A program made the position numbers and the translations under genes. This document shows positions 1,409-39,825 of a stretch of 45,563 bases of DNA, in pieces. Origin of the DNA: Dehalococcoidia bacterium (lineage in GTDB: Bacteria; Chloroflexota; Dehalococcoidia; Lucifugimonadales; UBA3495); assembly GCA_022451925.1 (NCBI GenBank), contig JAKUNL010000021.1, positions 1 to 45,563 of the forward strand, in the 5' to 3' direction. The notes beneath the pieces are model-generated. The model was not told the DNA's origin. It searched no databases and saw nothing but the letters and a program-made list of their open reading frames with translations. How positions within the stretch are numbered: the stretch's first letter is position 1; each line of letters begins with the position of its first letter.

Positions 1409-2167
1409 ATGAAGCAATTAGGCGTAATGATAATCTTTATGCTGCTATTAACACTTGCCTGCGGTGATACAGATACCCCAGAAACTTCGGTACCTTCTTC
1501 ACTTGAGGCAACCGTACAAGCACTGGCATCTAATAACAGATTCACTGCTGCTTCCGAAACAGGACCAGACTTCAATATCGAAGCCACAATCACCTACCGC
1601 GTCCAAGCGACAGTCCAGGCTTTGTTCAACGCTACACCCATACCTTCACCCACCCCTACACAGGATGTTCGCAAGGTCTTATCGACACCGGAACCCACTA
1701 GTTTTACGATCCAGACTGGAGGCAGTTTCAACACAGCCCCCAATTCGCTACCAACGGCGACGACGGTATCCTCTGCAACGGCCGCTCCATTGCCCACCCC
1801 TAGTGCGACGCCACCACCCGGTTGCGTTGGCGCTGAAGACGGAGTGCGGGTATCGGCTTTGATTAACGGGGTCATTGTAGAAACAACGATAATAAAAAAT
1901 GGAAGGTACTCCCTGATGGTGGAACAGAACGACGGGACAGATTTCACTGGCCAGACCATGACTTTTATGGTGGGGGGTACTGAAGCGCACCAATCAATAA
2001 AATGGAACCAAGGCGCTGCCACCGAACTGACTCTCACCGCACCTAATGATGATCTGAGTAAGATCGTCACAGATCACAACCACGGAGCTCGGTTGAAGGG
2101 AGGTATACTCGCCCAACCACTCCCTCCACACGTAGTCCTCGGAGAAGTACTCGTCGGTATCTGTTAA
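1409..2167 (+). CDS. Hypothetical lipoprotein with Thr/Pro-rich linker and C-terminal beta-rich domain
   Basis: GGAGG RBS; MKQ + hydrophobic stretch ending LTLAC (lipobox); ATV repeats and PTPT/PTAT linker; C-terminal globular region. Confidence 0.8.
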   Translation: MKQLGVMIIFMLLLTLACGDTDTPETSVPSSLEATVQALASNNRFTAASETGPDFNIEATITYRVQATVQALFNATPIPSPTPTQDVRKVLSTPEPTSFTIQTGGSFNTAPNSLPTATTVSSATAAPLPTPSATPPPGCVGAEDGVRVSALINGVIVETTIIKNGRYSLMVEQNDGTDFTGQTMTFMVGGTEAHQSIKWNQGAATELTLTAPNDDLSKIVTDHNHGARLKGGILAQPLPPHVVLGEVLVGIC

Positions 2168-3436: not shown

Positions 3437-3838
3437 TTAAGAGATTACAGCAGCGATGCCAGCCTTGGCACAATCTTCATCCTGCTGGCTGGTGCCGCCA
3501 CCCACTCCTACTGCTCCATCACAACCGCCATTCCGGATGACTGGAGCGGCACCTTGGCTCGGAATACCGTGGCCACCCTCGGCACCAAGGATTCCCTTCA
3601 TAATAGGTGACTCGGCCCGTTCTTGGAGTTCACCGCTTGGACGTCCAAACGCTGTTGAGGCTACCGCCTTCCCTTGTGCCCCGTATGAGCCTCCCCAAAT
3701 GGCACCATCCATACGGTTAAAAGCCAACAATCGTCCGCCGGCATCAACCACTGCCACGTTGATCTTGATGCCAAACTCATTGGCTTTGGCAATAGCGCCT
3801 GCCACCATTTTGTTAGCCTCGTCTAATGTTATAGCCAT
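3437..3838 (-). CDS. GlcG/HbpS family heme-binding protein
   Basis: VAVVDAGG, RMDGA, A-GKA, GAVGVGGG and QDEDCA motifs; GGAGG RBS. Confidence 0.9.
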   Translation of the reverse strand: MAITLDEANKMVAGAIAKANEFGIKINVAVVDAGGRLLAFNRMDGAIWGGSYGAQGKAVASTAFGRPSGELQERAESPIMKGILGAEGGHGIPSQGAAPVIRNGGCDGAVGVGGGTSQQDEDCAKAGIAAVIS

Positions 3839-4023
3839 GATTCCTCCACAAAGTTAGGTATGCTAAAAAGTATGGTCATTCTAGCTTAGTAAGCCAGTCG
3901 CGCCAATGGTTGGTTTACACTGTCCATTCCAGGCACAGTGTTATACTGCTAGTATGTCCTGAAACGGGAACGTTTCACAGTTTACTTACCAGATTGACAC
4001 ACCTCTGGAGATTCCAAACCTAA

Positions 4024-8758: not shown

Positions 8759-10438
8759 ATGTCGGCTCCGTTATTGATCAACACAATCCAGGAATCAGTT
8801 GCTTACGCGTCGGAAGCCGCCCAGCATGAGGGTGTGCTCCAACTGGATACCATGCCAGAAATTCAAGTGGAACGGCCGGGTAACTCTGAGCACGGCGATT
8901 TCGCAACAAATCTCCCTCTGAGATTATCCCGCGCCACGAGGATAAACCCCTTAGAACTGGCCCAGGCTATTGCCAAGCATATCTCCCCTAACGATGTCAT
9001 AGATCACGTTGAAGCAGCGCCGCCGGGTTTTATAAATTTTTACCTGAAACAATCCTGGCTGCAAAAACAGGTGGACGTCATTCGACAATCAGGTAGCAAA
9101 TTCGGTGATGTTGACACCGGACAAGGTCGGAAAGTGATGGTGGAGTTTGTCAGCGTAAATCCAACTGGCCCAGTCCACGTCGGGCACACCAGAGGTGCAG
9201 TATTAGGTAGCGCTCTGGCCAACGTTCTAGAAGCAGCAGGCTTTGAGGTAACCCGAGAATATTACGTCAATGACGCCGGCAACCAGATGCAAATGTTCTA
9301 CAAATCTGTTCTGGCTCGCTACCAACAAGAACTTGGCCAAGAAGCAGAAATTCCAGAGAACGGCTACATGGGCGAATATATCACCGAACTCGCAAAAGAC
9401 ATATTGAATGTTGAAGGTGACCGCTTCCTAAAAATGGCAGAGGAGCAGGCCTTATTGGAGATTGGCGACATTGGCCGCGAAAAGATTGTCTCGACCATCA
9501 AAGATGACCTTTCATCCATAGGGGTTGAATTCGACAACTGGTTTAGTGAGCGCAGCTTATTCTCGAGTGGCGAGTACGAAGAAACCATTGATTTCCTTAG
9601 AGAAAAGGATTATTTATCGGAACGGGATGGGGCACTTTGGTTCAACTCTGTGATGCTGGGTGATGATAAAGATAACGTCATTGTCAAGACATCCGGTGAA
9701 TCGACGTACTTCGCTTCAGACATAGTCTACCATCGCAACAAGCTGATCAAACGAAAGTTTGAATCGGTAGTAGACATCTGGGGAGCAGACCACCAAGGTC
9801 ACGTGCCGAGAATGAAGTCGGCGGTTGAAGCATTAGGCATTGACCGCGACCGACTTACAGTCCTTATCTGCCAGATGGTAACTCTCCGCCGTGGCCAAGA
9901 CGTGATGCGCGTGTCCAAACGCGGAGGGAACTTAATCACACTGCGAGAAGTGGCAGACGAAGTAGGGATAGACGCCTGCAGGTACTCCTTCCTAGCGAAG
10001 GCCCCGTCAACCCAGATGGAATTTGATCTGGAAATGGTTAAGAAAGAGTCGAACGAAAACCCAGTGTTCTACGTTCAATACGCTCACGCCCGCAACGCTA
10101 GCATCATCGAATTGGCCCGAGAGAGAGGAATCGACTGGAGCAACGGTGACATCAGCCTCCTAACCCACCCCAGTGAACTGGATCTGATCAGGGCGCTTCT
10201 ACGGCTCCCTGAATTGGTGGATGAGATGGCAACTATTCTTGAGCCCCACCATCTACCTCACTATGCCACCGAACTAGCCAATAACTTTCATAACTTCTAT
10301 GAGAACTGCCGGGTTGTATCTTCAAACGAATCGGACACCGCCATAACCGCCGCTCGGCTCAAATTGGTAGAAGCGGCTCTCATCGTATTCCGACGCACTC
10401 TGACTCTGATGGGAATGACCGTCCCGAATCGGATGTAA
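8759..10438 (+). CDS. argS: Arginine--tRNA ligase
   Basis: HGDFATN, PGFINF, EFVSVNPTGPVHVGH (HIGH), YYVNDAGNQ, GADH, SKRGG and YVQYAHAR motifs. Confidence 0.97.
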   Translation: MSAPLLINTIQESVAYASEAAQHEGVLQLDTMPEIQVERPGNSEHGDFATNLPLRLSRATRINPLELAQAIAKHISPNDVIDHVEAAPPGFINFYLKQSWLQKQVDVIRQSGSKFGDVDTGQGRKVMVEFVSVNPTGPVHVGHTRGAVLGSALANVLEAAGFEVTREYYVNDAGNQMQMFYKSVLARYQQELGQEAEIPENGYMGEYITELAKDILNVEGDRFLKMAEEQALLEIGDIGREKIVSTIKDDLSSIGVEFDNWFSERSLFSSGEYEETIDFLREKDYLSERDGALWFNSVMLGDDKDNVIVKTSGESTYFASDIVYHRNKLIKRKFESVVDIWGADHQGHVPRMKSAVEALGIDRDRLTVLICQMVTLRRGQDVMRVSKRGGNLITLREVADEVGIDACRYSFLAKAPSTQMEFDLEMVKKESNENPVFYVQYAHARNASIIELARERGIDWSNGDISLLTHPSELDLIRALLRLPELVDEMATILEPHHLPHYATELANNFHNFYENCRVVSSNESDTAITAARLKLVEAALIVFRRTLTLMGMTVPNRM

Positions 10439-15072: not shown

Positions 15073-15103
15073 AAAAAAGGCCCGCTCTCGAACGAGCCTT
15101 TTT
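15073..15103. terminator. Probable bidirectional intrinsic terminator
   Basis: AAAAAAGGCCCG-loop-CGAGCCTTTTT between convergent genes. Confidence 0.7.
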
Positions 15104-15121: not shown

Positions 15122-15778
15122 TTACTCTTCAGACGAGGAAGGGACACCCTCGCTTAAAAAACGCTCCATGGCCATCTTGAACGTTTCGTATGGCTGTGCC
15201 CCAGTGAAGAGCAAGTTTCCGACCAAGAAAGTCGGAATACCGCTGATACCATAACCAAGAGCTTCTTGGTATTGGGCCATGACTTCCTTGGCGTAGATCC
15301 CTTCTTCCAGACTCTTCACCATATCATCTGCGTCCAAACCTACTTCATGGCCCACCTTATGGAGAATCTCCATCTCGCCAATGTCCTGTCGGTCCTCCCA
15401 GAACGCCTTATAGGCAGCGTGGTGAAACTCCAAGAATTTCCCATGCTGTTGAGCATATTCTGTGGCTTCCAGGGCATAAAGGGTATTAGGAGTCCTTCTA
15501 GCTGGTCGCATGATGAGACCAGCATCCTTGGCCTGGCTTCTTAGTGGCTCGGATAACTCATCTTCGGTCTCTCCTGGCCGCTGGGGACGCTCTCTGCCCT
15601 CTTTTGGGGTGTCTGGACGCAGTAGGTAGGCCCGGCCTTGCACGGCTATCTCATACTCGCTCGCCAACTTGTCGACTCTCTCCAGGCCGACGTAACACCA
15701 GGGTCAAATGTAATCGTACCAAACCGAAATATTTACCGGCCGGTTATATTGGTTGGTGGTCTGAGTATTTTCCTCCAT
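15122..15778 (-). CDS. DsbA/FrnE-family thiol oxidoreductase, probable selenoprotein (UxxC)
   Basis: GGAGG RBS, then ATG at 15778: MEENTQTTNQYNRPVNISVWYDYI-TGA-PWCYVGLERVDKL continues in frame into the listed 15122-15667 ORF (PNT, GISGIPTF, GAQP). TGA at 15704-15706 occupies the first Cys of CPWC; 218 aa. Confidence 0.88.
15671..15691 (-). promoter_or_regulatory. Putative bacterial SECIS hairpin of the DsbA-like gene
   Basis: mRNA GUCGGC-CU-GGAG-AG-A-GUCGAC stem-loop starting 12 nt after UGA; G-initiated apical loop 20 nt from UGA. Confidence 0.6.
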
Positions 15779-15906
15779 ATGGACCCTCCAATATGAAATA
15801 GACTGTTGGAATCCGCCACTAGTGGACATTTCTCGAAATCATTGCCACAGGGTACCATTTACCGAGGTAAAGTCACCACAGGAGAGTCGGCCTAACTAGA
15901 AGATGC

Positions 15907-16614
15907 TTAGGCCAAATCCTCCAGAACCTGGAGCAACTCAGATAAGCTGGAAATAGTCAAGCAGCCTTCGGATTCTGGAGTGTGACCAGTCCGATCGATC
16001 AAGACCGCTTTCATACCAACTCTCTGAGCGCCCATAACATCAGACCGAACCTGGTCGCCGACGTGGAGAATCTCATCGAGTCTGGTACCGACCTTTTCGG
16101 CGGCAGCAATGAAGATTGGCGGATGAGGCTTTTCGATTCCAACTTCTCCAGAACCGACGGCGAAATCCAAGTAAGGCGCCAGGCCGACCCGCTGGCAGAG
16201 TTCTCCTAGGTCCTGTCGTAGATTGGTGATTATCCCAACCTGGTAGCCGGACTCCCTCAACTGCTCCAGCGCAGTGACAGAATCGTCGAACGGCACGAAA
16301 TCCTTAGGGACTGACATGGCCATCTTCCAAACCCGCTGCGCCAAATCCATAGATACTTCGATACCGGCGGTCGCTAATATCAACTGCTCATATCGACCAA
16401 AGAATTCCAAACGCTCCTTATCAGAACGTTTGGAGAGGGGCCGGTCCTCATTCTCGCGGTTGAAGAGCACATCAGCCACCGCATAACCGTGAATGATCTC
16501 TTCTTCTTGAACTGTCAGGCCAAGTTCGTGGCAGGCGGCCTGCTGTATCCCCTCCAATGGAGGCCAAAACCTGACCAGGGTATTGTAAAAATCGAAGGAG
16601 ACCGCTTTGATCAT
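15907..16614 (-). CDS. HAD-superfamily hydrolase (subfamily IA)
   Basis: FDFYNTL, ITN, EKPHPPIF, HVGD...DVMGA motifs. Confidence 0.9.
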   Translation of the reverse strand: MIKAVSFDFYNTLVRFWPPLEGIQQAACHELGLTVQEEEIIHGYAVADVLFNRENEDRPLSKRSDKERLEFFGRYEQLILATAGIEVSMDLAQRVWKMAMSVPKDFVPFDDSVTALEQLRESGYQVGIITNLRQDLGELCQRVGLAPYLDFAVGSGEVGIEKPHPPIFIAAAEKVGTRLDEILHVGDQVRSDVMGAQRVGMKAVLIDRTGHTPESEGCLTISSLSELLQVLEDLA

Positions 16615-30074: not shown

Positions 30075-30614
30075 GTGGAATCAAACGCCGGCCGTTTTGA
30101 AAATCAGAAGAGAACCGCTATGAAATACAGCGAACATGCCAATGTTATCGGCCAGGATCAGAGCCGGTGCGAAGCCGACACACTGAACGGGGAAGACCTG
30201 ACCACCTGGCAGGTACACGTCACAGGACTACGTGAGTATGATACCTTTCTTAACCTGGCCATGAAGTTCACCTACGTTTGTATGGTAGTCGCATCACCTT
30301 TGTCAAAGGTATTTTATGTCCTGGGAACTCCCTTGAGGTTGGTTGGATACGGTGGATCGGGGCTACTCCACGTATTGTTCCGACTGCTGCTAGCCCCCTT
30401 CTTCGGGACAGTCCTCTTAACCTCATCCATCTGGACCAACGTCAAACAACTAAGACCGATCCTCACGGTCATAGGCCCCATATTTGTGATTCTAACCCTC
30501 TGGTTATTAGCATTATTCCCAGAAGAATTGGAGACGAAAGAGACTAAGGAAAAACTATGTAAGAATTGGCCGCTGAGTAGGAGACGGTTGGAGTGGGAAA
30601 GGGGTCACTACTGA
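30075..30614 (+). CDS. Hypothetical membrane protein
   Basis: 179-aa ORF with several hydrophobic segments; start uncertain (possibly ATG 30120). Confidence 0.55.
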   Translation: MESNAGRFENQKRTAMKYSEHANVIGQDQSRCEADTLNGEDLTTWQVHVTGLREYDTFLNLAMKFTYVCMVVASPLSKVFYVLGTPLRLVGYGGSGLLHVLFRLLLAPFFGTVLLTSSIWTNVKQLRPILTVIGPIFVILTLWLLALFPEELETKETKEKLCKNWPLSRRRLEWERGHY

Positions 30615-30784: not shown

Positions 30785-30807
30785 TCTTTAGTTACATTAC
30801 AAACTCC

Positions 30808-31066
30808 GCTGGGAATGGGAGTAGTACGGATACCCTGTCTGAGAGAGCCGGCGATTGGTGTGAATCCGGTGGCAGTAGGATCCCGAACTCGCCCAGGAGC
30901 GGCCCGCCCGAAATACCAGTAAGGCGCGGCGGTTGACACCGATAAAATGTCTTCGAGTGGCCAAGCGGCATAAACCGACTTTAGATGAGGTCTAACGCAA
31001 GGCCAGAAGAAGGGTGGTACCACGGACCTATCGGCCCGTCCCTTCCATATGGGATGGGTTTTTTTT
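30808..31066 (+). ncRNA. T-box riboswitch leader (Leu, CUC specifier) with transcription terminator
   Basis: AGTAG, GAGAGAG and GGTGTGAA stem-I motifs; GAA-CTC specifier (30888-30890); AGTA in stem II; AAGGGTGGTACCACGG T-box (31010-31025) pairing with CGTCCCTT; CCCGTCCC/GGGATGGG + T8 terminator. Confidence 0.93.
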
Positions 31067-31123: not shown

Positions 31124-32818
31124 ATGGAATTAACCGGCGCTGAAATAGTCTGCGAAAGCCTTCTGAAAGAGGGCGCTGATGTAATCTTTGGACTGCCTGG
31201 TGGTGCGGTGCTTCCCCTATATGGGGCTCTCGCCAACTACCCGAAAATACGCCACATCTTAGTCCGCCACGAACAGGCCGCTGCCATGGCTGCAGACGGA
31301 TACGCCCGCGCCACCGGCAAGGCTGGAGTCTGCGTCGCAACGTCTGGCCCAGGAGCGACCAACCTAGTCACCGGCATCGCCGCAGCCCAAATGGACTCGG
31401 TACCTATGGTCGCCATTACCGGCCAAGTCCCCAGGCCTTACATAGGCACAGACGCCTTCCAAGAGACCGATGTTACCGGCGTGACGCTCCCAATCACCAA
31501 GCACAACATCCTGGTCATGAAAGTAGAAGACGTAGCTCAGGCTATCCATGACGCTTTCTACATAGCCAACAGCGGACGTCCTGGCCCAGTACTCGTGGAC
31601 ATTCCTCGAGACGTTTTACTAGGTGCAAAGACCGAGTTTATATGGCCTGAAACCCACAAACTTCCCGGCTATAGGATTCCAGGTCCAGCCGACGAAACCG
31701 AGGTAATCGCCGCCGCTGCATTAATCAACCAGTCCCAACGTCCATTAATCATGGCTGGTCACGGTATGCTGATATCCCATGCATATTCTCTGATGACCGA
31801 GATGGCCGAGAAGGCCCAAATTCCGGTTATCACAACATTACTCGGAATCAGCTCTATTGCATCAGATCATGAACTTAATCTGGGTATGTCCGGTATGCAC
31901 GGCATGGCCTACGCCAACTTGGCCATTGATGAGGCCGACCTGATCATTGGTTTGGGTATGCGGTTCGACGACCGCGTTACAGGAAGGATTTCAGCCTTTG
32001 CGCCCAACGCCAAATTCGTCCACGTGGACATCGACGCATCGGAGATTGACAAAAATGTCCAGACCGACATTGGTGTCTGCGGTGACCTGAAATCAGTCAT
32101 GGAACAATTGCTTCCCAAGGTGGAGCCGAACGTTCATATTGACTGGCTCAGGCACATCCAGGAATTGAAGGATCAACATCCGTCTCACATAGTTCGGCAA
32201 TCAGAAGAGTTGCTACCTCAGTATGTTCTCCAACGTCTGACGGAAGTCACTCAAGGGCATGGCATAGTCGTAACGGGTGTAGGACAGCACCAGATGTGGG
32301 CCGCCCAGCATTGTCTCTTCAGGGAACCTAACACCTTCATAACCTCTGGCGGATTGGGAACCATGGGATTCGAAGTCCCCGCTGCCTTAGGGGCCCAGGT
32401 GGGCCGCCCCGATACCACTGTCTGGTCAGTCTGCGGCGACGGGGGGTTCCAAATGACCATGTGCGATATCGCTACTGCCGTTGAGAGCGGGGCAGACGTT
32501 AAGTTTGCCATATTGAACAATAAAAACTTAGGCATGGTTCACCAGTTGCAGGACGTGTTCTTCGAGAAAGATTACATGGCTAGCGAGTTCTCGGCCAACC
32601 CCGACTTCGTAAAAATTGCCGAAGCCTACGGAATCCGCGGCATCCGCGTCACTAAACAAGAAGAAGTGGTAGATGCGGTTCAACAAGCCATGGAGACCGC
32701 GGGTCCAGTAATTGTAGACTTTATGGTAAAAGAAGACGAGATTGTCTTCCCATTCATACCGTCCGGCCAATCAGTAAACGAGATGCTAGAAGAGCCAGCT
32801 CATAACGGGACTTCCTAG
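31124..32818 (+). CDS. ilvB: Acetolactate synthase large subunit
   Basis: FGLPGG, RHEQ, TSGPGATN, FQE, RFDDR, GQHQM, SGGLGTMG, GDGGFQM, NN..LGMV. Confidence 0.96.
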   Translation: MELTGAEIVCESLLKEGADVIFGLPGGAVLPLYGALANYPKIRHILVRHEQAAAMAADGYARATGKAGVCVATSGPGATNLVTGIAAAQMDSVPMVAITGQVPRPYIGTDAFQETDVTGVTLPITKHNILVMKVEDVAQAIHDAFYIANSGRPGPVLVDIPRDVLLGAKTEFIWPETHKLPGYRIPGPADETEVIAAAALINQSQRPLIMAGHGMLISHAYSLMTEMAEKAQIPVITTLLGISSIASDHELNLGMSGMHGMAYANLAIDEADLIIGLGMRFDDRVTGRISAFAPNAKFVHVDIDASEIDKNVQTDIGVCGDLKSVMEQLLPKVEPNVHIDWLRHIQELKDQHPSHIVRQSEELLPQYVLQRLTEVTQGHGIVVTGVGQHQMWAAQHCLFREPNTFITSGGLGTMGFEVPAALGAQVGRPDTTVWSVCGDGGFQMTMCDIATAVESGADVKFAILNNKNLGMVHQLQDVFFEKDYMASEFSANPDFVKIAEAYGIRGIRVTKQEEVVDAVQQAMETAGPVIVDFMVKEDEIVFPFIPSGQSVNEMLEEPAHNGTS

Positions 32819-38167: not shown

Positions 38168-39157
38168 CTAAACTAGCTTCATCTGGAAACCGCTATCTTG
38201 CCGCTGGCTCTTGGTGTTCAGATGCACCGCAGGATAACCCAACTCACGAAGGCGGCCTGACAACTCAGGGAACCCATTCACCGTATAAACATGATTTGGT
38301 GAAACAGCCTGAACATATTCCACCAACTCGTTAAAATCGGGATGATCACTATAAGGCAGACTGGCGTCGGCTGACCTGCCCCAAGGCATACTGCCAGAGG
38401 TCGCCCAGCCGGTCATCTCCAAAGTGCGCTTGCCACGGAATTCTTTCAGGGCTTCACGCCGTTTCCCTGGGGGGAACATCAGGATCCAACCTTCCGGCCA
38501 TATACCTTCAAACAGATTCACCTGGCCGGGAAATTTCACCCCTGATTCCAAATATATCTGGGTTCCCAGATATATACTTTTTTCCACCATAACATCAAAA
38601 CCCTCACCCAACAGATGGTGCAGCAATTCTTGCGATTTGCCCAAGCGCCAGCCCTTGATCACCGGTCGGTACCCTTGAGAAAGCCACATCCTCAATGTGT
38701 TGTAGGCTGTCTCAAGAACTTGTTCTTCAGGAGGGAACACATACTCCGGGCGTCCATAAGTAGACTCAATTACCAATGTGTCGCAATGAACTGCCTCCAG
38801 CGGTTCATTGACCGGGCTTCTGCGGCTCTTGATATCTCCGGTATACAGGAGCCTTTCACCTGTCTCTTTAGATACCACTAACGCCTGAGCCGAACCAAGG
38901 CAGTGTCCAGCTGGATACAGTGTCATGGTGTAAGAAGTGGTCTCATACGGTTCATGATAGGTAAGTAGAATCGGGTCGGATTTTTTAAGGTAATCGCCAA
39001 GCAGATTAGCGGTTTCGCGTGTGAGAACTGGTCGATTATGGCGTGCAGTGTGATCGGAATGGGCATGGGAAATCAGGCTGAATTCACGCTTCCTGGTTGA
39101 ATCCATCCAAAGATCCAAATCAGGCAAATAGACTCCGCTTCTGAACTCTGCCTGCAC
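38168..39157 (-). CDS. MBL-fold beta-CASP nuclease (DNA-ligase-associated exonuclease / SNM1-like)
   Basis: SHAHSDH, AGHCLGS, YTGD, ESTYG, LGKSQ, TGW, YSDH motifs; likely GTG start at 39157 (ORF open to 39190). Confidence 0.85.
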   Translation of the reverse strand: MQAEFRSGVYLPDLDLWMDSTRKREFSLISHAHSDHTARHNRPVLTRETANLLGDYLKKSDPILLTYHEPYETTSYTMTLYPAGHCLGSAQALVVSKETGERLLYTGDIKSRRSPVNEPLEAVHCDTLVIESTYGRPEYVFPPEEQVLETAYNTLRMWLSQGYRPVIKGWRLGKSQELLHHLLGEGFDVMVEKSIYLGTQIYLESGVKFPGQVNLFEGIWPEGWILMFPPGKRREALKEFRGKRTLEMTGWATSGSMPWGRSADASLPYSDHPDFNELVEYVQAVSPNHVYTVNGFPELSGRLRELGYPAVHLNTKSQRQDSGFQMKLV

Positions 39158-39360
39158 TACACACCCCCCATCAGTGATTCTAGTGAACACCCAATAAGAA
39201 TCTCTGAAGACAACTCAGCCGAGTATATCATGGTGTTCTTGGTTTCCAATCCGTCCCACGTGTCACAAATATTGGTGTCTAGTGGTCAATTGTGAGGTAT
39301 AATCTGCGCGCATGGGCTCTATATCTATGACGCTCAAATCTTAATTAAAAGGGTGAGAAT

Positions 39361-39825
39361 ATGCCGGGTCAAGTTGGCGAAGTAGCTCCCGAATTTAAAC
39401 TCCCTTCCGGTGATGGGGATATATCACTAAGTGATTACAGGGGCAAGAAGATAGTTGTCCTATCTTTCCACGTGTTCGATTTCACCGCTGGTTGAACGAC
39501 ACAAGCAACTTCGTTTCGTTCAGAGTACAAACGGTACGAGGATAGTAATGCCCAGGTTCTGGGCATAAGCTGCGATACAGTCCCTTCACACAAAGCATGG
39601 AGCACAGCAATGGGTGGTCTTCCCTACCCTGAATTGTCCGACTTTCACCCTAAGGGTGAAGCGAGTAAGGCTTACGATCTTTACAACGAAGAAAGGGGAG
39701 CTAGCAAGCGGGCCGTTATCATCATTGATAAAGAAGGCGTGGTTCAGTTCCGCGAGGAATATGAACCAGGGACTCTGCCAGACCCGGTTGATATATTTGA
39801 GGTAGTTGACAATCTAAACAAATAA
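39361..39825 (+). CDS. AhpE/AhpC-TSA peroxiredoxin, probable selenoprotein (TxxU)
   Basis: ATG 39361: MPGQVGEVAPEFKLPSGDGDISLSDYRGKKIVVLSFHVFDFTAG-TGA-TTQATSFRSEYKRYEDSNAQVLGISCD... continues in frame into the listed 39610-39825 ORF (SDFHP, SKRAVIIIDKEG). TGA at 39493-39495 is the peroxidatic position; 154 aa. Confidence 0.88.
39509..39541 (+). promoter_or_regulatory. Putative SECIS hairpin of the peroxiredoxin gene
   Basis: CUUCGU/ACGAGG plus CGUU/AACG (or UCGUUU/AAACGG) stem around a CAGAG loop, starting 13-15 nt after UGA. Confidence 0.45.

Follow-up and report, generated by a model that had tools for sequence, protein, structure and literature searches.

The question raised by this locus is whether a TGA codon near the 5' end of a minus-strand reading frame terminates translation or is read as an amino acid and, in the second case, as which one. 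The locus lies in a 45,563-nucleotide stretch of DNA from a Dehalococcoidia bacterium (contig JAKUNL010000021.1), analysed at its full length and called here the window. The reading that we favour, with a probability of roughly 0.88, is that positions 15122-15778 encode a FrnE-type member of the DsbA family, a cytoplasmic thiol-disulfide oxidoreductase of 218 residues, in which selenocysteine (Sec) would be the nucleophile of a U25-P-W-C28 active site.

The reading frame and its active site

The features of the locus are as follows.

15122..15778, minus strand: complete coding sequence of the predicted DsbA/FrnE-like selenoprotein, 218 codons plus TAA, codon 25 being TGA
15778-15776, minus strand: ATG start codon, opening the 218-codon read-through frame
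15785..15789, minus strand: GGAGG, Shine-Dalgarno-like, 6 nt 5' of the ATG at 15778-15776
15704..15706, minus strand: in-frame TGA, the proposed selenocysteine codon U25, replacing the nucleophilic first Cys of CxxC
15695..15697, minus strand: codon of Cys28, the resolving Cys of U-P-W-C and sole Cys of the protein
15671..15691, minus strand: proposed bacterial SECIS hairpin, with the apical loop GGAG at 15683-15680
15233..15235, minus strand: codon of Pro182 in G-I-P-T-F, the conserved proline loop (alignment A4, 74 sequences)
15124-15122, minus strand: TAA stop codon, ending the read-through frame
15080..15093, minus strand: terminator-like stem-loop and T run about 30 nt past the stop codon, a consensus match only

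The original prediction had started from the lack of a CxxC motif in the listed 181-aa ORF, which begins at TTG 15667. This ORF in fact contains no cysteine at all. Extension upstream through the TGA, the only one inside the 218-codon frame when the minus strand is translated, reaches the ATG at 15778 that had been proposed as start, led by GGAGG at 15789-15785, and the read-through product reads VWYDYI-U-PWCYVG around the TGA, which is the anticipated motif. Every sequence element sits where it had been placed.

In Pfam, the 218-aa read-through product hits DSBA with an E value of 7.9e-33 and 114.3 bits (cut-off 25.6). The match runs from residue 17 to residue 204 and takes up profile positions 2-190 of 191. 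Among solved structures, Deinococcus FrnE (5cnw) is matched with an E value of 1.1e-17 over residues 13-213 and SCO1869 (3gl5) with one of 9.9e-15 over residues 16-213; in both alignments codon 25 falls on the first Cys of CPWC. The DsbA/FrnE-type identity claimed for the gene is upheld by the Pfam match and the alignment with 5cnw, as is the placement of its TGA on the nucleophilic Cys of the FrnE-type motif.

Codon 25 corresponds to Cys in 80 of 150 family representatives (35 CPWC, 33 CPFC, 9 CPYC and 3 others) and to W in four, while 47 of the 150 start past this codon. The W in the four is taken to be a TGA called as Trp by the gene caller. P0124 (45-47% identity) and P0144 (53-55%) are full-length homologues with Cys. 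In the 74 sequences of alignment A4, C25 and C28 are nearly invariant and D22 and P182 invariant; two orthologues have U-A-W-C instead of U-P-W-C. In DsbA proteins and others of the thioredoxin fold, the conserved proline loop is turned towards the active site, and Pro182 is presumably in the cis conformation. Beyond C28 the chain, 218 residues long in all, contains no further Cys, hence the C-terminal CxxxxC motif is absent. By direct reading, the N-terminus is polar, with no run of hydrophobic residues ahead of the first strand; the protein is probably cytoplasmic.

Conservation of the TGA codon among SAR202 orthologues

The locus might instead be a pseudogene or a truncated gene, in which translation stops at the TGA and gives either nothing functional or a 181-aa protein, devoid of the active site, from TTG 15667. 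A standard ORF listing yields exactly this ORF. Of the 33 window ORFs with 150 aa or more, 6 close with TGA, which is thus an ordinary stop in this DNA. In addition, the best 120 database homologues are all annotated in the same manner, N-truncated, starting after the TGA and without the active site, which bears out the expectation that gene callers would mis-start the gene. A few other database proteins carry a false Trp at the presumed Sec codon.

However, TGA occupies the aligned codon in all 80 orthologous loci retrieved (63-90% identity), with in-frame coding on both sides of it. These loci are assigned to Dehalococcoidia, SAR202, Chloroflexota or Chloroflexi, except for one labelled 'uncultured bacterium', and they do not include the window's own genome. 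In most of them the orthologues align across the TGA over residues 1-217. A Shine-Dalgarno-like motif and a start codon are found 5' of the TGA in each of the 79 loci that are uncut by a contig end; the start lies exactly 24 codons before the TGA in 70 of these and is ATG in 75. In the codons 5' of the TGA the amino acids are kept while third positions are free (1.27-1.92 bits), indicating that this segment is under protein-level selection.

Nor is there a consistent start further downstream. Of the 81 sequences, 35 have a start codon at codon 38, the supposed one, and 46 have a Leu-only CTN there; the earliest start available past the TGA varies from codon 30 to codon 90 among the 81. The short product would be a DSBA domain without its first strand and with no active site at all. 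Gene order is maintained as well, with a HAD hydrolase upstream in 75 of the 80 loci. Taken together, these comparisons indicate that the TGA is not accidental, and a truncated gene appears extremely unlikely.

One base separates TGA from a Cys codon, and a sequencing or assembly error could have turned a true TGC or TGT into the stop. Against this, all of the 80 genomes, each assembled independently and several to chromosome level, have the identical TGA, which leaves such an error a vanishingly small chance. Alternation between TGA and Cys, one of the checks proposed for this codon, is indeed observed: TGA in all 80 close orthologues and Cys in the 80 of 150 family representatives mentioned above. 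UGA on a catalytic Cys had been invoked as a hallmark of selenocysteine, an argument that the invariance of the codon in the 80 loci supports.

In a FastTree phylogeny of 110 representatives, the window protein falls in a group of 13 rows with a local support of 93, made up of nine N-truncated proteins, three with Cys and the window protein itself. N-truncated forms recur in different parts of the tree, in which branches are mostly weak (17 of 107 starred) and N-truncation is only a proxy for Sec.

The hairpin 3' of the TGA

Twelve nucleotides past the TGA begins a hairpin with an 8-bp stem, a one-base bulge and a 4-nt loop beginning with GG; the distance from UGA to loop is 20 nt and the folding energy is -10.0 kcal/mol. 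All of this lies within the bSECIS model as drawn in Fig. 2A of PMC13188914. The model in that figure has a loop of 3-9 nt with a G in the first two loop positions, an upper stem of 4-16 bp, 16-37 nt between UGA and loop and a minimum free energy (MFE) of -7.5 kcal/mol or lower.

Single-sequence folding does not distinguish the window hairpin from shuffled sequences (z -0.33). Orthologues behave similarly, with z values of -0.35 to -1.06 in four and +0.27 in one, and a 73-nt fold gives z +0.76. Since the folds are no better than shuffles, the case for the hairpin rests on comparative evidence and not on energy. Rfam, applied to the whole window at the gathering score, returned a T-box alone and nothing at the hairpin; for positions 15560-15800, with E values up to 10, it gave three weak and irrelevant matches.

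The core helix is able to pair in all 81 sequences. Paired cells amount to 91.2%, as compared to 25-49% when the partner strand is slid. At columns 18/34, C-G is replaced by G-C in loci L047 and L065, where Asp becomes His as a consequence, and at columns 22/30, C-G is replaced by U-A in L047 and L048. It must be noted that these double changes are limited to two pairs and four cells and may each go back to one event in an ancestor shared by related loci. In 35 of 77 distinct rows the outermost pair (columns 16/36) does not form, and four of the eight pairs never vary and hence are uninformative on pairing. Synonymous sites tell more of the same region: the third positions of G31, L32, R34 and V35 have entropies of 0, 0, 0.5 and 0.17 bits, the four lowest among 62 fourfold-degenerate columns, the others ranging from 0.61 to 1.96 bits.

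These patterns show, by sequence comparison, a hairpin held under nucleotide-level constraint. The constraint could have a cause other than a SECIS element, for instance codon preference, an antisense feature, or a regulatory RNA or protein-binding site, in which case another signal would have to drive read-through. The shortness of the hairpin, its shuffle-like stability, the mostly invariant columns and the lack of an Rfam match would agree with such a cause, but synonymous variation is suppressed only at the hairpin codons while flanking codons vary freely. Moreover, the changes observed preserve pairing, one of them at an amino-acid cost, and position, loop and stem all fit the published bSECIS model. 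We therefore give these other causes a very small probability and take the hairpin as a putative SECIS element. The 81-sequence alignment provides a clean illustration of SECIS constraint on synonymous sites within a coding region.

The window was scanned throughout for frames, 100 codons or longer, that stay open only if one or two TGA codons are read through and that are unoccupied by another gene. Two only were found, 15122-15778 and 39361-39825. The latter encodes an AhpE-type peroxiredoxin with its TGA on the peroxidatic Cys, a position at which peroxiredoxin homologues have W or Cys. The MFE fold 3' of this TGA has no leading G in its loop and is only 10 nt from the UGA, so that it does not obviously fit the bSECIS model.

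Decoding, selenium dependence and known systems

The genes of Sec insertion are not found next to the oxidoreductase. ARAGORN detected 0 tRNA genes, tRNA-Sec included, in the window, and likewise 0 in all 80 orthologous loci (1.5 Mb). A Pfam scan of 40 window ORFs revealed no selA, selB or selD, and tblastn with SelA, SelB and SelD of E. coli K-12 gave no match in the window or the 80 loci. This says only that the sel genes are unlinked to the locus.

Indirect evidence for the machinery comes from a related genome. Orthologue L079 sits on MPMM01000001.1 of SAR202 cluster bacterium bin22, which is MPMM00000000 (PMC5649159 Table 2). The COG counts for bin22 are two for COG1921 (SelA), one for COG3276 (SelB) and one for COG0709 (SelD) (PMC5649159 Table S4). 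The same table, which does not cover tRNA-Sec, records SelA, SelB and SelD COGs in all 5/5 SAR202-clade bins; COG1921 counts above one may include paralogues. At the level of the phylum, Chloroflexi are among the Sec users (PMC1794560) and tRNA-Sec has been reported in them (PMC5389517).

This information bears on the possibility that the UGA is read through as a residue other than Sec, by reassignment to Trp or Gly, by near-cognate suppression, or by a Cys-charged tRNA-Sec-like tRNA delivered via SelB. W does appear at this codon in some public gene calls (P0125 and the four family representatives), but it is most simply ascribed to a gene caller's TGA=Trp table, and Trp or Gly as nucleophile would abolish a CxxC enzyme. 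Reassignment also conflicts with the use of TGA as a stop in 6 of the 33 long ORFs, and the sole other internal-TGA gene in the window is the peroxiredoxin, again with the codon on the catalytic Cys. Insertion of Cys would give back an ordinary CPWC site, and the identity of the residue is deduced from sequence, no tRNA having turned up in the window or the 80 loci. However, decoding through SelB calls for a hairpin like this one, constrained and canonically spaced from the UGA, and the published table credits SAR202 bins with COGs for SelA, SelB and SelD (PMC5649159). Read-through as a non-Sec residue thus seems very unlikely, and the inserted residue is most probably Sec.

According to the mechanism that we propose for the Sec enzyme, ribosomes would initiate at the Shine-Dalgarno-led ATG at 15778. 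The hairpin at 15691-15671, 12 nt past the UGA at 15706-15704, would serve as a bacterial SECIS and recruit SelB with GTP and Sec-tRNA(Sec). Sec would be inserted in place of termination and translation would proceed to the TAA at 15122. In the resulting protein, the U25 selenolate would attack a substrate disulfide or an oxidised thiol, C28 would resolve the mixed selenenylsulfide to form an internal Se-S bond, and an external reductant would reduce this bond. The enzyme presumably has the role of a reductase or an isomerase and depends on a recycling partner.

The kind of gene is already known, DsbA-like selenoproteins with UxxC having been recognized since 2005, and general knowledge of selenoproteins is unchanged by this addition. 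In the literature searched, no description was found of the SAR202 orthologue group, of its TGA conservation in 80 of 80 loci or of the SECIS constraint. Two SAR202 genome papers (PMC5395668 and PMC5864207) contain the word selenium only by way of an author's name, and the one relevant item on selenium in SAR202 or Chloroflexi was the sponge-symbiont COG table (PMC5649159). A search of the protein against NCBIfam matched no dedicated model that would rescue its annotation. With database entries truncated or misread, functional and metabolic inference from SAR202 genomes misses the enzyme.

A Sec codon in a syntenic gene at 80 of 80 loci points to a standing selenium requirement in this abundant deep-ocean clade. 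A more far-reaching model assumes that all SAR202 of the dark ocean have fixed Sec in a core, syntenic, cytoplasmic FrnE-type enzyme and in the AhpE-type peroxiredoxin, as a clade-wide selenium-based thiol defence in which Sec-FrnE recycles the Sec-peroxiredoxin. We consider this model rather unlikely. If it were true, the two selenoproteins would constitute one peroxide-detoxifying relay, and the selenium-based defence would be a trait, overlooked until now, of a heterotroph group that is among the most abundant in the ocean, with a possible link to the extensive use of oxygenases by this group against recalcitrant organic matter.

Selenoproteins of the DsbA-like kind had been said to occur in bacteria, and the published surveys agree. 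The available part of PMC1088965 describes nine such sequences from the Sargasso Sea metagenome, assigned to COG2761 and carrying the motif UxxC, and that of PMC5029168 counts 45 genes in 41 organisms. In the portion of PMC13188914 that deals with these proteins, a 'DsbA-like protein form 1' is defined by PF01323 and UxxC. The SAR202 protein shares with form 1 the PF01323 domain, UxxC, the stem-loop 3' of the TGA and the widespread Cys homologues; its likeness to the published exemplars AACY01178397 and NIP15863.1 is judged by domain and motif. The string D-x-x-U-P, given for form 2 in the same portion of that review, is also present in the SAR202 protein, which is filed under form 1 because it is a stand-alone 218-aa protein with a second Cys.

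NF041057 (Rcas_1661 / DsbG-like) is a family of thioredoxin-fold UxxC (seleno)lipoproteins of Chloroflexi and others. The SAR202 protein scores 49.5 bits against a cut-off of 190, matches by its C-terminal half only (residues 97-206) and has no lipoprotein signal; membership in this family was rejected.

The hairpin resembles the SECIS of E. coli fdhF in lying inside the reading frame, immediately 3' of the Sec-UGA, as a stem-loop whose small apical loop begins with G. This likeness is to the general model only, with no claim to sequence resemblance, and SelB binding is putative. Many putative bSECIS elements are unlike those of E. coli, as stated in the available text of PMC13188914.

Among proteins of solved structure, Deinococcus radiodurans FrnE (DR_0659; 5cnw, 5cp1) is the best relative. 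The two proteins have in common the D-x-x-C-P-W-C context and the lack of a visible signal peptide, the first Cys of FrnE standing where the SAR202 protein has Sec. The second-best solved relative, Streptomyces coelicolor SCO1869 (3gl5), is a putative DsbA oxidoreductase whose CPWC is aligned with the active site and which likewise has Cys, not Sec. The accessible sections of PMC8945050 present FrnE as a cytoplasmic enzyme that has a CP(W/F)C site and isomerises or reduces disulfides. In D. radiodurans FrnE, according to these sections, a C-terminal CxxxxC motif aids regeneration of the enzyme, whereas the SAR202 protein is devoid of it. The motif occurs in many but not all FrnE homologues and is not strictly defining; as far as the same sections go, the FrnE proteins of S. 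roseofulvus and D. maricopensis are like the SAR202 protein in this respect (PMC8945050). With no C-terminal CxxxxC tail, recycling of the SAR202 enzyme must differ from that of Deinococcus FrnE.

A 218-codon frame interrupted by a single TGA

The gene under study is opened by an ATG with a Shine-Dalgarno-like motif before it. Reading through its TGA at codon 25 gives the peptide VWYDYI-U-PWCYVG (U, selenocysteine or Sec). In all these respects, coordinates included, the original prediction described the frame correctly.

Features of the candidate selenoprotein genes and their surroundings
15907-16614, minus strand: HAD-family hydrolase gene, 128 nt upstream of the selenoprotein gene, adjoining it in 75 of 80 orthologous loci
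15789-15785, minus strand: Shine-Dalgarno-like GGAGG, six bases before the ATG, read from the sequence
15778-15776, minus strand: start ATG of the 218-codon frame
15706-15704, minus strand: in-frame TGA, codon 25, sole interruption of the frame
15691-15671, minus strand: putative SECIS hairpin, 12 bases after the TGA; 8-bp stem, one-base bulge, GGAG loop; -10.0 kcal/mol
15124-15122, minus strand: stop TAA, end of the frame
15093-15080, minus strand: terminator-like site after the selenoprotein gene, consensus match only
39361-39825, plus strand: AhpE-type peroxiredoxin, second candidate selenoprotein; TGA 39493-39495; Pfam AhpC/TSA 6.5e-36

The standard ORF list contains only a 181-aa ORF, which begins at TTG 15667 and has no cysteine. 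Gene callers thus mis-start the gene, as had been anticipated, and the databases repeat this. In a search of 5.8 billion clustered proteins, the best 120 matches (63-98% identity, 156-184 aa) span no more than 68-83% of the query, which means that 120 of 120 begin after the TGA. The named entries among them are labelled SAR202 cluster bacteria or 'DsbA family'.

Of the 33 window ORFs that reach 150 aa, TGA ends 6 (TAA 15, TAG 12). It is ordinarily a stop, so wholesale reassignment does not explain the frame. Moreover, a scan of the whole window for frames of at least 100 codons in unoccupied DNA that need one or two TGA read through retrieved only two, 15122-15778 and 39361-39825. The latter is a complete AhpC/TSA-domain protein if its TGA is read through. 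In M. tuberculosis AhpE (5c04, E 5.9e-26), the residue aligned to this codon is the peroxidatic Cys. Among ten inspected homologues, W occupies the position in those 99%, 74%, 65%, 67% and 63% identical, and Cys in those 80%, 59% and 56% identical; many further matches are truncated. The minimum free energy (MFE) fold after this TGA has no obvious fit to the bSECIS model.

Elsewhere in the window, a T-box leader (30802-31046, plus strand; Rfam RF00230, 97.1 bits vs a gathering score of 93) lies directly upstream of the acetolactate synthase large-subunit gene (31124-32818), which is followed by genes for the small subunit, ketol-acid reductoisomerase and a LeuA-like protein. Four ORFs have no Pfam match at 1e-5: 38168-39190 (minus, 340 aa), 1409-2167 (plus, 252 aa), 30075-30614 (plus, 179 aa) and 3456-3857 (plus, 133 aa). 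In the 252-aa ORF, the N-terminus resembles a lipoprotein signal, with a hydrophobic stretch that runs up to a Cys.

Conservation of the TGA and its alternation with cysteine

A profile search of a species-representative genome collection, in which the window's own genome was not among the sequences retained, provided the best 80 of 344 relatives. Their titles name Dehalococcoidia, the SAR202 cluster, Chloroflexota or Chloroflexi, save one that reads only 'uncultured bacterium'. The loci show 63-90% protein identity, most of them matching query residues 1-217 across the TGA. TGA is found at the aligned codon in 80 of 80 loci, 77 by pattern search and three by inspection. One of these three, L002, is cut by a contig end. 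The others, L014 and L017 (both at 10073-10084), read U-A-W-C, with Ala for Pro after Sec, and keep the TGA and hairpin.

With TGA in all 80 loci, a sequencing error is excluded. The pseudogene reading is excluded by the same conservation together with that of the flanking coding sequence and the Shine-Dalgarno-led starts. Indeed, such a motif and a start codon precede the TGA in all 79 loci uncut by a contig end, the start being ATG in 75 and lying exactly 24 codons before the TGA in 70. Four conserved codons in this stretch combine an unchanged amino acid with variable third positions (1.27-1.92 bits), hence the region before the TGA is translated in frame and under protein-level selection. 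Beyond the TGA, the earliest codon that could serve as a start shifts between codon 30 and codon 90. Codon 38, where gene callers start the gene in the window, reads TTG or ATG in no more than 35 of 81 sequences; in the other 46 it is CTN, which can only encode Leu. A gene in two pieces is likewise excluded by these results.

Gene order is conserved as well. In 75 of 80 loci the gene is preceded, on its own strand, by the HAD-family hydrolase gene; a pair of ABC exporter genes lies downstream in 55/80, and RpiB (62/80) and trehalose phosphatase (74/80) also belong to the neighbourhood. Since this order is conserved and no promoter-like site was found between the hydrolase and selenoprotein genes, co-transcription of the two is possible. 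The hydrolase may be an operon mate or functional partner of the selenoprotein.

The original prediction proposed a check for TGA/Cys alternation, and it is seen. When 150 family representatives at the 50% level were sorted by their residue at codon 25, 80 were full-length with Cys (35 CPWC, 33 CPFC, 9 CPYC, 3 others), 47 started after this codon, 18 were long multidomain proteins, four had W and one had SPFA. The closest full-length Cys forms, P0124 (45-47% identity) and P0144 (53-55%), both read D-Y-I-C-P-W-C. Such alternation is what one expects of a selenoprotein family. The four W representatives, one of which (P0125) is 82% identical over the aligned stretch, are taken to reflect translation of TGA under a TGA=Trp table. 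Some public gene calls have Trp in place of the Sec-TGA in both selenoprotein families (P0125, P0273, P0275, P0276, P0278, P0279), which suggests that the contigs behind them were called with this table, leaving a false residue in the active site. The 18 long proteins (518-1163 aa; e.g. P0129, P0136, P0138, P0145, P0152, P0161) contain 3-8 stretches matching the DsbA-like domain and look like tandem arrays of it.

Constraint on the hairpin after the UGA

The bacterial SECIS consensus has an apical loop of 3-9 nt on an upper stem of 4-16 bp, G in the first two loop positions, a UGA-loop distance of 16-37 nt and an MFE of at most -7.5 kcal/mol (PMC13188914, Fig. 2A). The window hairpin agrees with it on 4 of 4 criteria, the UGA-loop spacing being 20 nt. 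Most orthologues have a 9-bp stem with a GAG loop (e.g. L001, -13.9 kcal/mol). Folding energy alone proves nothing: compared with dinucleotide shuffles, the window has a z-score of -0.33, five orthologues lie between +0.27 and -1.06, and a 73-nt stretch is at +0.76.

Comparative evidence is stronger. The RNAalifold consensus on an 81-sequence alignment of the TGA and 57 nt (A3) is the same helix, with five core pairs kept in 81 of 81 sequences. Standard pairs fill 91.2% of cells in the 8-pair structure vs 25-49% after a shift of the 3' partner by 1-3 columns, and the covariation score of 0.034 exceeds that of all 500 shuffles (0.018). At pair 18/34, L047 and L065 have G-C in place of C-G, the 3' substitution costing an Asp to His replacement; at pair 22/30, L047 and L048 have U-A in place of C-G. 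These compensatory changes occur in few cells and may be single events; in 35 of 77 distinct rows the outermost positions do not pair.

Synonymous sites provide the clearest signal. Across the gene, 62 conserved codon columns are fourfold-degenerate, and third-position entropy was calculated for each. The four lowest are the four within the hairpin, G31 (0 bits, GGC in 81/81), L32 (0), R34 (0.5) and V35 (0.17); all others range from 0.61 to 1.96 bits. A SECIS within a coding region predicts nucleotide constraint of this kind, confined to the 20 bases that follow a conserved UGA, and the gene is a clean example of it.

Selenocysteine machinery and relation to known proteins

No tRNA was found in the window, no SelA, SelB or SelD domain among the 40 window ORFs scanned, and no Sec machinery in 1.5 Mb of orthologous loci. 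Published data give indirect support for Sec use. The contig that carries the TGA orthologue L079, MPMM01000001.1, has the title SAR202 cluster bacterium bin22. Bin22 (Chloroflexi; SAR202 clade) is MPMM00000000 in Table 2 of PMC5649159, and the COG assignments in its Table S4, which do not cover tRNA-Sec, give bin22 two COG1921 (SelA), one COG3276 (SelB) and one COG0709 (SelD). All three COGs are listed there for 5 of 5 SAR202-clade bins (22, 127, 90, 16 and 87), and SelA only for an incomplete reference single-cell genome. Chloroflexi are among the Sec-using phyla in Table 2 of PMC1794560, and a tRNA-Sec type is reported from them (PMC5389517).

The read-through product (P0001, searched with C for U) matches Pfam DSBA at 7.9e-33 (residues 17-204, profile 2-190 of 191; 114.3 bits, cut-off 25.6). 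Among solved structures it is closest to FrnE of Deinococcus radiodurans (5cnw and 5cp1, E 1.1e-17, residues 13-213), with Streptomyces SCO1869 (3gl5, E 9.9e-15) next; in each alignment codon 25 coincides with the CPWC site at its first Cys. A 74-sequence alignment with full-length homologues shows no variation at D22, P182 and G193 and hardly any at C25, P26 and C28. The sole NCBIfam match, to the DsbG-like selenolipoprotein family NF041057, stays below the cut-off (49.5 bits vs 190). The N-terminus, read directly, is polar and without a hydrophobic stretch, and the protein is probably cytoplasmic. With its DSBA domain, a TGA on the catalytic Cys in 80/80 loci and a constrained hairpin, the interpretation as a DsbA/FrnE-like selenoprotein with a U-P-W-C active site is supported.

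In 2005, DsbA-like UxxC selenoproteins (COG2761) were reported from the Sargasso Sea, as nine sequences with a predicted SECIS (PMC1088965), then from 41 organisms in a 2016 survey (PMC5029168); a 2026 review lists 'DsbA-like protein form 1, PF01323, UxxC' (PMC13188914). The gene is a member of this known family, and the published exemplars may be identical to the SAR202 genes. In the papers retrieved on selenium in SAR202 and Chloroflexi, we found no mention of fixation of the gene across SAR202/Dehalococcoidia, its pairing with a Sec-peroxiredoxin or uniform mis-annotation. The finding is mainly an annotation correction, of modest interest.

The Shine-Dalgarno-led frame, the conserved UGA at the CxxC nucleophile position, the constrained hairpin and Cys in distant relatives are observed; from them we infer Sec insertion and redox chemistry at U25 and C28. 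The hairpin would recruit SelB carrying Sec-tRNA(Sec), allowing Sec insertion at the UGA, and U25-P-W-C28 would work as in DsbA and FrnE proteins. The U25 selenolate would attack a disulfide or oxidised thiol, C28 would resolve the mixed selenenylsulfide and an external reductant would then reopen the Se-S bond. Cys28 is the sole Cys of the SAR202 protein, which ends at residue 218; unlike Deinococcus FrnE, it therefore has no C-terminal CxxxxC, a motif by which many FrnE proteins are regenerated. Because this tail is missing, the reductant would be unable to act as proposed for Deinococcus FrnE and its route would differ. The same CxxxxC is reported missing from S. roseofulvus FrnE and D. maricopensis FrnE (PMC8945050).
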